This document shows, piece after piece, positions 12,001-16,064 of a stretch of DNA of 16,064 bases. The position numbers are program-made. The stretch is from UHGV virus genome UHGV-1966638; one strand, written 5' to 3'. How positions within the stretch are numbered: the stretch's first letter is position 1; each line of letters opens with the position of its first letter. Source of the DNA: a virus.

Positions 12001-15000
12001 GAATACATACACACGAAAACTTTGATTTAGGCTTAACCCGTTGATTCTTCCACAATCCTCAATTTGAGGAAGTCGGCGTGGTAACTCATTGAGATTAAAG
12101 CAAAGCGCAAAATTGCGCTGGCTGAATAATCATTATGATTACGCAGATGATTAAGGCCTAAGCCGTTGATTCTTTCGAAATCCCCCATTGGGGGAAACCG
12201 GAGCGGTTACGGCGGTAACTTGTTGATATTGTTCCAAAGCTCATTTTTGAGCTTTGGCCTGCTCAGTTTATTCAACTTCCGTCAGTGGTGGGCGTTGAGA
12301 AACACTGCTGCGTGGTATTACTCTAACCCATTGATGTTTATTGCTCATTTACTCGATTATTTGAGTTGTTCAAATTCACCAGTCGTAAAACCATGATTTG
12401 TACATCCCCGATATCGGGGTATGTAAACCATCCAGACCGGGCCAGCCAGCCAGCCCTGATTTTTACATCCCTCACTTCTGAGGGCTGATAACAAACCATC
12501 TTTAAGAGGGTCAGAACTACGAAATTTTCGTAGTTTAACTTTCATCCAGTGCATCTCCGAATTACGGGTATGTAACCACAGCTATTACGAGGCGATTGTT
12601 GATGCGTGATATTCAGCAGGTTCTGGAACGCAGGGGAGCGTGGGCGGCAAATAATCGCGAGAATGTGACCTGGTCATCCGTTGCCGCAGGAGTTAAGGGG
12701 ATTATTCCGGCAAAGATAACATCACGCCCACAGTGCTGTGACGATGATGCGATGGTGATATGCGGGTGCATAGCCCGCCTTTACCGGAACAATCGCGATC
12801 TGCATGAGTTGCTGGTTGATTACTACGTGCGGGGGATGACGTTTATGTCACTGGCGCAAAAACATGAATGCTCTGATGGGACTATCGGAAAGCGGCTGCA
12901 AAAAGCTGAAGGTGTTATTGAAGGAATGCTGATGATGCTGGATGTTCGGCTGGAGATGGATCGGTATGTTGAGCGCGATTCAGTGACGGCATAACGCGCA
13001 TAAAAAAACCGCACTCATGAGGAAACTGCGGCGGAGAAGTCAGACTTGCCAATCAATCATGAAAAACGTAATCGCCTGATAATTATGCCACGAAGCACGG
13101 AAAAACAGTACAGGCGGTGAGATATAGCCCTCAAATGGAGGGAAAATCCCCTAAAGCGAGGGATATCCATCAAAACGAGAGAACATCCCCTAAAATGGGG
13201 GATTTGCATCACGGAAAGGTGTCCATGACTGCTCTCCGCGCTATCGGGAGAGGCTTCTCGGCGGTTTTCGCTGAACGCATTCAACGTGATGTTGCCTCAA
13301 ATACCCCCTATTGTTGCCTCAAATCGACATGATGTCGCCTCAATTTTTTTGTGATTATTAATTAAATCAATACGTTAAGGCGTTTGAGGCAACTGAGGCG
13401 ACACATTTTTCCTATATATATAAAGCGTGTGAATGATCTGAATGGTGATAATCACCACGCAGACCATCCAGACAACCATAACGAACATCGTTACAGTTGG
13501 AGCTTTTACCCCGTTGGGGGGGAAAGGTGCACATCTGGATCATCATTATGGTGATCGAGGGTATGGCTAAAATGACCACACCCCACCAGCTTCATAGAGG
13601 ATAACCGGAAAAAATCCGGTAAATATTTGCCTGAGTAAGTCATCAAGCGCCTGCTAAATGTGTATAGAAATGTGTATAGGATTGATTTTAGAACATGTAG
13701 AAATGGCTTTATTACTGGTGTCATGGCTTTTTGTTCTGTTCCCTTCGCCGCTCCATGACCATTCTTAAAGTCTACTAACTTACTGAATCCTAAGGGATAC
13801 GGCTTAAAGCCTTCCAATAGTTTTACTCACTGTAACCAACACTGTGACTAACTTTGTTGAAGTAGTGAGCAGACCTAAGGTCTCAGTACATGCTCAATTC
13901 AAGAACCTACCTTTATCAGCGTAACGGTGTCTTTTACATCCGTCTTAGGATGAAGACCACGGGTCGCCTGACCGCTTCGCTTCCTTCTCACAACCGTTAT
14001 AAACTAGCGTCAGTATCACTACGGACTAAGGACAGACGCACCGCTATGGCTCACTCTCGGCACATCAAGTCAGCACTGAAGGCAATACACGCAGACAACC
14101 CTAGCGCGTCCTATGAGGAACTACGGGAGCACCTGAAGACCATTGTTGAGTGGGAACTTAGTGTCAGCCGTGATGACCTGAACGACCCTGAGTCCTACCA
14201 GCTTTACGTTGACCAGTACGATGACATTAAGTCCAACCTTCGGGAAGCTGTAGCGACTGAGCGTCTGACTGTAGACCAGCATCGCTATATCAATGACGTT
14301 ATCGGTGTGCTTAAGGCCTGTCAGGATAGACTCAAGGGTGATAGCTCTGGCCTGTTGTCTTACCTTGAGCCTGAGACCAGTAGTCTAAGACCGTCTGTCT
14401 CCTTATCTGTATCATCGGAGCCTGAAGTCCCTGAACCTAAAGCCCTGACCCTCGCGTCTCTCATTGAGCAGTACGAGCAGGAGAACGCCCAGAACTGGAA
14501 GCCAGCGACCCTGAGCGAGAACCGAGCGTCTCACTCTACGTTAATCGAGATATTCGACTATCTGGATATTCAGGATGTCGGCAAGGCGACCCGTTCAGAT
14601 ATGCTCAGGGTCCGTGAAGTCCTCCAGCAGATACCGAAGAACCGCAAGCAACGCTTTAAGTCTATGCCGCTGTCTGACCTGCTGAACCGGGAGTCTAAGA
14701 CTGACTGTCTGGATGTCGTTACCATCAACAATAAATACCTTATCAAGATGGCTGCTGTGTTTAAGTGGGCGGTACGCAACGACCTGATAGCTAAGAACCT
14801 GACAGAAGGTCTTGAGCTGAAAGTCCCGCAGCGTAAAGCCTCCGACGCTCGTGATGCGTTCAGTCCTGAGCAGGTAGGGCAACTACTGGTCGCAGCTAAA
14901 GCGTACTCGCAGAAGACCTCAGGGAAGCCATATCATTATTACGTCACCGCTCTGGCTGCAATCACTGGAGCGAGACTTAACGAGGTGGCCCAACTTCAGG

Positions 15001-16064
15001 TCAAAGACGTCAGGACCACTGAGGCCGGGACCGTGTATATCCATATCAACGAAGACGATAGCAGCTTGCCGGGGAAGAGCATCAAGAACGCCCACAGTGA
15101 CCGCTGTGTCCCGCTGGTCGATGGCGCTTATGGTTTTGTATTGGCTGACTTTATGTCGCTTGTGGAAGACCGTAGAAAGACTATGGGTGATAATGCTATG
15201 GTATTCGATGGCCTCAAGCTGATGAAGAATGGCTACGGTGAGCAGGTAAGCAAATGGTTTAACCGGACCTTGTTACCAAAAGTTCTCGCTGACCGTAGCG
15301 GCTTAGCGTTTCACTCGTTTAGACATACAGTTGCGACCCAGTTAAAACAACATGGGGTCGAGTTAGCGTATGCTCAGGCGATTATGGGTCATAGCTCAGG
15401 GTCTATAACTTACGACCGTTACGCTAAAGAGGTCGAGGTGGATAGATTGGTTAATGTGATGGCAGGTGTTGCTAGGGGGAAATAGATGCAGAGATCAACA
15501 CAACCAAGGATTGAGCTTGAAAGGGCTGAGAGGGCTTTGTTAGGAATGAAATCCTCAACGTCATTAGATGAATTTGAGGAATATTGGCGATACTTTTTAA
15601 CCCACTTAGAAAGAGTATGGAATAAAAGTGTTAATCATTTCTCGAAAAGTGGAAAGTGGCAATCTTGGCATGGTAAATATCTTAGTGCGAGACGAAAGGA
15701 TCAATTGCTTTCATATCTTATAAATGCCCGAGGAGCAGAGGAGCACACAGTGGAAAGCATTATTACAAGATCCCCTGAAGGCTGGGGTATTATGCCGCCT
15801 GAGCCTTACGGAGAAATGAGGATTAGAACTTTTACAGATGAGTCTGGAAATTACGTCATGCAAACGACTCCCGGATCAAAGGTGGTTTTTTTCCCTTCGG
15901 AAACACAGTTGCTCCCGGTAACGAATAGAGGGAGAACTTATGATGTGCCTCGAAAACACTTAGGGGAGGATATCGTTCCTGAAGATATTCCGTCACTAGC
16001 AGATAAAGCCCTTTTATTTTATAGAGGCTTTCTGGATGATGCAGAAAAATATTTTTATGGTTAG

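Follow-up and report, generated by a model that had tools for sequence, protein, structure and literature searches.

Defence hotspots in P2 and P4 elements were reportedly described by Rousset and colleagues in 2022, and integrase-adjacent defence systems are said to have been found by Vassallo and colleagues in the same year. The HEPN superfamily of RNases, as reportedly set out by Anantharaman and colleagues in 2013, is said to include the HEPN-MNT toxins, Csm6 and the Abi HEPN families. In Escherichia coli, the ETT2 type III secretion island is found at the tRNA-Gly gene glyU (PMC2808357, PMC4313913). The defence protein PD-T7-4 has been renamed RAZR (ring-activated zinc-finger RNase) and combines a zinc finger with a divergent HEPN RNase (Zhang et al. 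Nature 2026, PMC13017515). RAZR is activated by phage ring proteins and acts via abortive infection, and its residues R146 and H154 are essential (PMC13017515). Here we describe the right-hand end of UHGV virus genome UHGV-1966638, a DNA of 16,064 nucleotides (the window), where the gene of a 531-residue tyrosine recombinase is followed directly by a gene for a 192-residue protein from a family that is large but unannotated. The last codons of this integrase gene form the left edge of a slot that holds different single genes in related genomes, RAZR among them, and from this context we infer that the 192-residue protein is probably a defence effector. Loci used for comparison are referred to by number (L001, L002 and so on). 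The features of the window that concern the integrase and the slot are as follows.

13733 to 13757, plus strand: junction of satellite and islet, a degenerate glyU 3' end with its core at 13741 to 13757 (TTCCCTTCG-CCGCTCCA, one C missing)
13758 to 13889, plus strand: leader and promoter region of the integrase gene, the same as the spacer between glyU and the integrase gene in satellite-free strains
13890 to 15485, plus strand: 531-residue tyrosine recombinase (site-specific integrase) of the glyU islet, ATG start
15443 to 15485, plus strand: cassette-specific 3' tail of the integrase gene and left edge of the slot, with the last residues ..V/ARGK before the stop codon and the sequence AGGGGG (15474 to 15479)
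15486 to 16064, plus strand: 192-residue protein of the PHROG 23516 family, ATG start, a single-gene cassette and candidate defence effector
15729 to 15746, plus strand: codons of R82-G-A-E-E-H87, the Rx4H motif at the end of helix 73-87, a proposed catalytic dyad

The one-gene slot behind the integrase

The coordinates given for the two open reading frames (ORFs) in an earlier, sequence-only reading of this DNA were exact, with 13890 to 15485 encoding 531 residues and 15486 to 16064 encoding 192. The TAGATG junction that it had pointed out is also as described, since the integrase stop codon TAG (15483 to 15485) directly abuts the ATG (15486 to 15488) of the next gene. A Shine-Dalgarno-like AGGGGG lies 6 nt before that ATG. 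The larger protein matches PF00589 over residues 325 to 513 (E 2.4e-18; 66.9 bits against a cut-off of 27.1) and PHROG 1, 'integrase' (E 4.7e-44). Its catalytic motifs, assigned by motif position, can be read in the translation as TGARLNE (Arg I), HSFRHT (His-x-x-Arg II), GHSSG (His) and TYDRY (Tyr). It had been called unrelated to the P4-type integrase encoded in the same window, which is correct, superfamily membership aside, the sole similarity being a 100-residue catalytic stretch at 27% identity around HxxR..H (BLASTP E 1e-4). The protein occurs on 124 contigs under the annotation 'site-specific integrase [Escherichia coli]'. The gene behind it had been described as A+T-rich, and this was borne out, its GC content being 41.1% and that of its third codon positions (GC3) 34%, against 50.9% and 57.5% for the integrase gene.

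The edges of the slot were set by comparing loci in which the integrase is followed by different genes. Between these, homology ends 15 to 43 nt before the integrase stop codon, at 15442 in the comparison with L002 or at 15470 in that with L001, and returns 117 bp past the stop codon of the 192-residue gene, so that the variable segment measures 710 to 738 bp. Three unrelated genes occupy it, namely the 192-residue gene, a gene for a DUF4145 protein of about 210 to 219 residues and a gene for a 202-residue hypothetical protein. In a 60-genome sample of RefSeq complete genomes the DUF4145 gene was the commonest content, and the sampled genomes with both arms had either this gene or a 'hypothetical' gene in the slot. 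The 192-residue gene is not a partner tied to this integrase but exchangeable cargo; most homologous integrases carry a different gene at this position. In divergent integrase alleles (82 to 85% identical) the stop codon again abuts the ATG of a DUF4145 gene.

The C-terminus of the integrase varies with the cassette, ending in ..V/ARGK, ..V/YKETGVNG or ..V/ETLKEKLAESLSVKK before the stop codon, and each tail embeds the Shine-Dalgarno sequence of the next gene. Since every cassette tail has such a sequence, the coupling would be built into the slot and would not be peculiar to the 192-residue gene. With the ribosome-binding site for the following gene placed inside the integrase tail, it is likely that the slot gene is co-transcribed with the integrase gene, and the position of the left edge within integrase codons would mean that the cargo is expressed from the integrase transcript. 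To judge from this arrangement the slot gene is probably also translationally coupled to the integrase. The leader (13758 to 13889) is colinear with the sequence downstream of glyU in L001 and L005, and a consensus scan of its plus strand found no sigma-70-like site.

The right arm of the slot starts 117 bp beyond the window end and corresponds to 10696 to 11165 of L005, a stretch of about 470 bp that is apparently non-coding. It is 86 to 87% identical across loci with different cassettes, and no promoter or terminator consensus was found on its plus strand. In E. coli L16-131 (L045, 7855 to 9656) the insertion sequence (IS) IS100 (istAB) is inserted between the integrase gene and the DUF4145 cassette gene; it parts the coupled pair, and the cassette is probably silenced.

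The sequence identity between loci is a mosaic. Between L005 and the window there are 36 differing sites in 13898 to 14541 and a single one in 14542 to 16064, and Citrobacter sp. Awk 4 (L017) has 28 integrase differences from the window in 13733 to 15080 and 2 in the last 984 nt. This pattern fits cassette exchange by homologous recombination, with the integrase gene serving as one arm, and the near-identity of the integrase 3' part and cassette between E. coli and Citrobacter indicates that the two spread together horizontally in recent time. The slot is a segment of about 0.7 kb between two conserved arms, the integrase gene on the left and the non-coding stretch on the right, and we propose that its content is swapped by homologous recombination in these arms. 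The slot resembles the defence hotspots of integrative elements in having conserved arms around a variable, AT-richer cargo and in its mosaic identity tracts. It is unlike the hotspots of P2 and P4 in that the carrier is an islet of 6 to 7 kb with a 531-residue, non-P4 integrase, and in that the slot takes a single gene and has its left edge inside the last codons of the integrase.

Of the other two occupants of the slot, the DUF4145 gene of L001 matches PADLOC PD-T7-4 (E 8.8e-103), and R146 and H154 are invariant in an alignment of the RAZR family. In sister strains, and in most E. coli, the glyU slot thus holds a validated defence gene (PADLOC match; defence activity, PMC13017515). The remaining occupant, present in some E. 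coli, is the following gene.

17932 to 18540 of L002: 202-residue slot gene, WP_000237836.1, of a small Enterobacterales family without a Pfam domain

Its product has the invariant residues R107-D-x-x-A-H112-G-D, which contain an RDxxxH motif, and gives a weak match to HEPN_RiboL-PSP. We consider this protein a second candidate effector in the slot.

The islet at glyU

Among RefSeq complete genomes, the integrase gene (82 to 97% nucleotide identity) is found immediately after glyU in hundreds of E. coli genomes, at a locus that adjoins actS and xdhABC and carries the ETT2 island. The last 17 nt of glyU, TCCCTTCGCCCGCTCCA, recur 6.3 to 7.3 kb downstream in L001, L002, L005 and L007, the downstream copy lying just before the GH15/ygeQ gene and ETT2. 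Two of these loci with both copies, L005 and L007, carry a 192-residue gene identical to that of the window. In view of the direct repeats of the tRNA end in these relatives, the integrase heads a small islet, which on this comparison is about 6.3 to 7.3 kb long and bounded by glyU 3'-end repeats, the right end of the window being its first 2.3 kb. Since the second copy of TCCCTTCGCCCGCTCCA lies 6.3 kb downstream in loci with an identical 192-residue gene, about 3.9 kb of the islet is predicted to lie past the window end. Five further ORFs make up the remainder of the islet in L005; they gave no informative Pfam or PADLOC match, and no replication or transfer genes could be recognised in the islet of about 6 kb.

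The homology of the window to these loci starts at 13733. No intact tRNA was found in the window by ARAGORN, and only the left, degenerate copy of the repeat (13741 to 13757) is visible in it, as the window ends at the stop codon of the 192-residue gene. This copy would be the predicted attR of the satellite described below and, at the same time, the attL of the integrase islet. According to this scheme glyU would be placed just upstream of the window, followed by the satellite and then by the islet, both elements would use the glyU 3' end as attachment core, and the worn core copy at 13741 to 13757 would separate the one from the other. The same tandem order of glyU, satellite, integrase islet and ETT2 is present in strain FHI_NMBU_11 (L002). 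The sequence-only reading had seen here the probable start of a second integrative element with cargo beyond the window, to be recognised by repeats of its attachment (att) sites. The position of the integrase after glyU, the repeats in relatives with their degenerate left copy in the window, and the layout of L002 show the second element to be real, and the remainder of the islet is predicted to lie outside the window.

The arrangement has a parallel in the tRNA-targeting island integrases of the glyU-associated ETT2 region (PMC2808357, PMC4313913), where the integrase is likewise directly 3' of glyU, the repeats are of the tRNA 3' end and ETT2 lies just beyond. It differs in that the repeats enclose a small islet only and not ETT2, and in that the islet of the window has been pushed off glyU by a P4-like satellite at the same core. 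In four further loci (L003, L004, L006 and L008) IS elements of the IS66 and IS3 families lie about 300 bp past the 192-residue gene. These loci have lost the remaining islet and a large part of ETT2 by deletion, keeping only the integrase gene and the cassette beside glyU.

Family, predicted fold and proposed function of the 192-residue protein

A word-indexed search found full-length homologues of the 192-residue protein at 39 to 52% identity in 56 clusters, and an exhaustive profile search extended the family to 1,802 clusters at E <= 1e-3 (1,283 at E <= 1e-10). The ORF is therefore a real gene and not a chance ORF. Nearly all members are stand-alone proteins of about 190 residues, and the protein matches PHROG 23516 (E 7e-26), the function of which is unannotated. 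The exact protein, annotated as 'hypothetical protein' in E. coli and Citrobacter, occurs on 166 contigs, including the chromosome-scale CP077225.1 and CP054457.1, and always at glyU. A tblastn search of GenBank phages gave no match to the gene.

Two residues of the protein, R82 and H87 in the sequence NARGAEEH, do not vary among 32 close relatives, and across 63 sequences at 25 to 44% identity each is conserved to at least 90%. The motif also occurs as ARNADEH and ARDADTH, and the ARNADEH-like forms match the canonical HEPN motif R[NDH]xxxH. In the confident AlphaFold2 model (predicted local distance difference test score, pLDDT, 89.9) a beta-rich insert (93-152) separates four helices (6-22, 27-52, 58-71 and 73-87) from a final one (168-191). 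The protein is predicted to fold as a helical bundle (6-87 and 168-191) into which a beta domain (93-152) is inserted. Likenesses to the HEPN superfamily are the predicted all-alpha core of the bundle, the invariant R[NGD]xxxH and the occurrence as a stand-alone conflict-system gene in mobile elements. The differences are that there is no HEPN profile match and that about 60 beta-rich residues are inserted ahead of the last helix. The match of the model to HEPN structures is no better than that to generic helical bundles.

With RAZR the protein shares no sequence or profile similarity, and it matches neither PADLOC PD-T7-4 nor Pfam. It has no cysteines and therefore no zinc finger to compare with the N-terminal Cys4 zinc ribbon of RAZR; its motif is spaced as Rx4H and that of RAZR as Rx7H, and its beta-rich domain is inserted into the bundle, whereas RAZR has an N-terminal sensor domain. 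In our own reading, the model's order of helix, R..H, loop or insert and last helix recalls how the DUF4145 domain of RAZR is arranged in sequence. When the family was aligned with the RAZR and 202-residue families by hhalign the probability was below 1%. The control comparison of the RAZR family with the 202-residue family was likewise negative, and the hhalign result is therefore uninformative on HEPN membership and is not to be read as a negative.

Homologues outside the Enterobacterales slot are found in a variety of mobile settings. In Pseudomonas the gene marks the extreme end of a prophage, between tRNA-Val and a convergent lambda-type integrase gene. In Janthinobacterium it comes after tRNA-His on the border of a phage-like block, and in a betaproteobacterial metagenome-assembled genome it is 4 kb from an integrase adjacent to tRNA-Pro. 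Elsewhere it is found beside resolvase, KilA-N, T5orf172 and NERD-UvrD genes, after phage tail and lysis genes, inside an island dense in toxin-antitoxin genes (with Fic, HigB, PIN, ParE and TacT), beside parE-phd and, on two small mobilizable plasmids of Acinetobacter, amid BrnTA and Fic genes. The homologues have no conserved partner gene. An iterative integrase hidden Markov model (HMM) search of 33 homologue loci (L009 to L042 without L017) found integrases nearby only in Pseudomonas (L009 to L012 and L026), in L027 and in L036. These contexts are those expected of a stand-alone conflict or defence gene carried by mobile elements, and not those of an integrase cofactor. Fic-family genes adjoin homologues in two unrelated contexts, the metagenomic toxin-antitoxin island (L048, 3151 to 5775) and the Acinetobacter plasmid pALWED2.7 (L049, 3081 to 4259); this association may be a coincidence or a weak link.

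We therefore propose, from the context of the slot and of the homologues, that the 192-residue protein would be a stand-alone anti-phage effector of the same functional class as RAZR. As to how it might act, the invariant R82/H87 pair in the HEPN-like bundle would cleave RNA, and detection of a phage product by the inserted beta domain would release the RNase from an inactive state. That the protein acts in this way, as a HEPN-like RNase with the beta insert as sensor, is a reasonable possibility to which we do not yet commit ourselves. It is with some hesitation that we suggest the widest form of the proposal, in which the family would be a new class of single-protein abortive-infection RNase, built as a divergent HEPN-type bundle with an inserted beta sensor, and the 3' end of the glyU integrase gene would be a dedicated exchange site for phage-triggered Rx(n)H RNases coupled to the integrase.

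Several results weigh against this proposal. At the level of sequence nothing ties the protein to a known defence family or to HEPN proteins. Searches of Pfam, NCBIfam and PADLOC were empty, whether run on the protein alone or on sets of 32 and 63 family members, no Pfam match was obtained with any of the 63, and PDB sequence searches gave chance matches only. The description of the protein as one of unknown function thus survived the remote-homology searches, which revealed a family that is large yet unannotated. The gene was absent from 5,426 RefSeq complete E. coli genomes in a low-stringency blastn search, and most environmental homologues have no integrase within 10 kb in what was a limited HMM search. 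In addition, the window stops at the stop codon of the gene, and the strain's own attR and right arm are unseen. No sequence or accession matching the protein was found in the DefensePredictor papers, and it may be one of the recently validated but unnamed systems, such as DS-44 of the DefensePredictor preprint, which lies behind an integrase.

Among other explanations, the 192-residue protein could be an accessory of mobile elements with a role other than defence, such as an anti-defence factor, a regulator or a fitness 'moron', carried at an insertion point by integrases that happens to be permissive. Such a role would agree with the lack of homology to known defence proteins, with a PHROG family of no known function and with locations at prophage ends and on plasmids, which are also typical of morons and anti-defence genes. 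We nevertheless think it rather unlikely, as a validated defence gene and another Rx4H protein occupy the slot in sister strains, the neighbours elsewhere are of the toxin-antitoxin or defence type and not early phage genes, and the islet lacks recognisable genes for replication or transfer, which an anti-defence factor could serve.

The recurrence of the family by toxin-antitoxin modules (ParE-Phd, BrnTA, HigB, Fic) and its invariant Rx4H motif would also suit a stand-alone HEPN-like toxin or addiction factor that keeps the islet, prophage or plasmid stable, acting as a post-segregational or stress toxin and not as a phage sensor. This appears improbable given the lack of a conserved partner, the E. 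coli cassette being one gene in 0.7 kb and the Pseudomonas homologue standing alone between tRNA and integrase; an unopposed constitutive toxin coupled to an integrase would be lethal.

The IS-mediated loss of the rest of the islet and of ETT2 in L003, L004, L006 and L008 might suggest that the integrase gene and the 192-residue ORF are the inert remnant of a decayed island and that the ORF is functionless today. This was rejected as very improbable. The ratio of nonsynonymous to synonymous substitutions (dN/dS) in the integrase gene is 0.10-0.15 against four alleles, which argues that the gene is maintained under purifying selection, and the ORF, which is unbroken and almost the same in E. 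coli and Citrobacter, belongs to a family conserved at full length across Proteobacteria.

Abutting stop and start codons, a Shine-Dalgarno sequence inside the integrase gene and the frequent overlap of Xis genes with integrase genes might recall a recombination directionality factor or other cofactor of the 531-residue integrase, a reading that we rejected as scarcely credible since the protein, with 192 residues, a pI of 6.54 and no helix-turn-helix or excisionase domain match, is not of the small, basic DNA-binding type and does not co-vary with the integrase, closely related integrases carrying RAZR or the 202-residue gene instead and homologues either facing an unrelated lambda-type integrase in convergent orientation or having none in the vicinity. 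The sequence-only reading had offered a directionality factor or a defence component as the accessory role; only the second fits, through the presence of PD-T7-4/RAZR in the slot elsewhere, and it is to our proposal of a RAZR-like effector that we return below.

The satellite at the same tRNA and the meaning of the locus

Everything to the left of the junction with the glyU islet is a P4-like satellite of about 13.7 kb, identified as such because of its DUF927 primase, C4 RNA and P4-type integrase. Its features are as follows.

1 to 1215: P4-type integrase with the domains Arm-DNA-bind_3 and Phage_int_M and a catalytic domain
4106 to 4193, plus strand: C4 antisense RNA (Rfam RF01695; 77.7 bits against a gathering score of 45)
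7303 to 7630: first iteron cluster, TGTYGCCTCAA in direct and inverted copies, coming after the primase gene
8776 to 10927: type II restriction-modification pair in overlapping genes, GC 38-40%
13290 to 13403: second iteron cluster in the right-hand part of the satellite, a crr-like copy of the origin repeats, TGTYGCCTCAA in direct and inverted copies
In the satellite: homologues of Rha and Ash
In the satellite: DUF927 primase
In the satellite: SSB and Q antiterminator

On the Rfam match, the C4 RNA marks the immunity control of the satellite as being of the P4/P1 type; it sits within the 3' part of a mechanically called ORF of 504 residues (2904 to 4418). The repeat TGTYGCCTCAA has 16 matches in both clusters together against 0.5 expected, and the two clusters resemble the ori/crr arrangement of P4. 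The second origin copy of the sequence-only reading is thus real, with the integrase ATG 487 bp further on (it had given about 450 bp). The methylase of the restriction-modification pair is a C5 cytosine methylase (PADLOC MTase_II, 3e-164; Pfam DNA_methylase, 3.7e-53) and its restriction enzyme matches PADLOC REase_II (7e-124). With a type II system on the satellite, both of the tandem elements at glyU would therefore carry defence cargo, and the tandem of a satellite with restriction-modification genes and the islet cassette would illustrate how independent defence cargo can accumulate at one tRNA.

The integrase, the islet and the overlap of an integrase gene with RAZR are of kinds already known. 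The 192-residue family, and the slot as a site where alternative Rx(n)H proteins are swapped, appear to be undescribed in the literature searched. If the proposal is true and the protein restricts phages, a simple search rule would follow, which is to inspect the gene joined to the last codons of this integrase; the 202-residue candidate was found in this way. The RAZR slot would then be a general exchange point for small effectors of the RNase type, and the 192-residue family would be a compact, widespread and so far unannotated single-gene immunity family, present in E. coli, Citrobacter, Pseudomonas and many Betaproteobacteria and on Acinetobacter plasmids.

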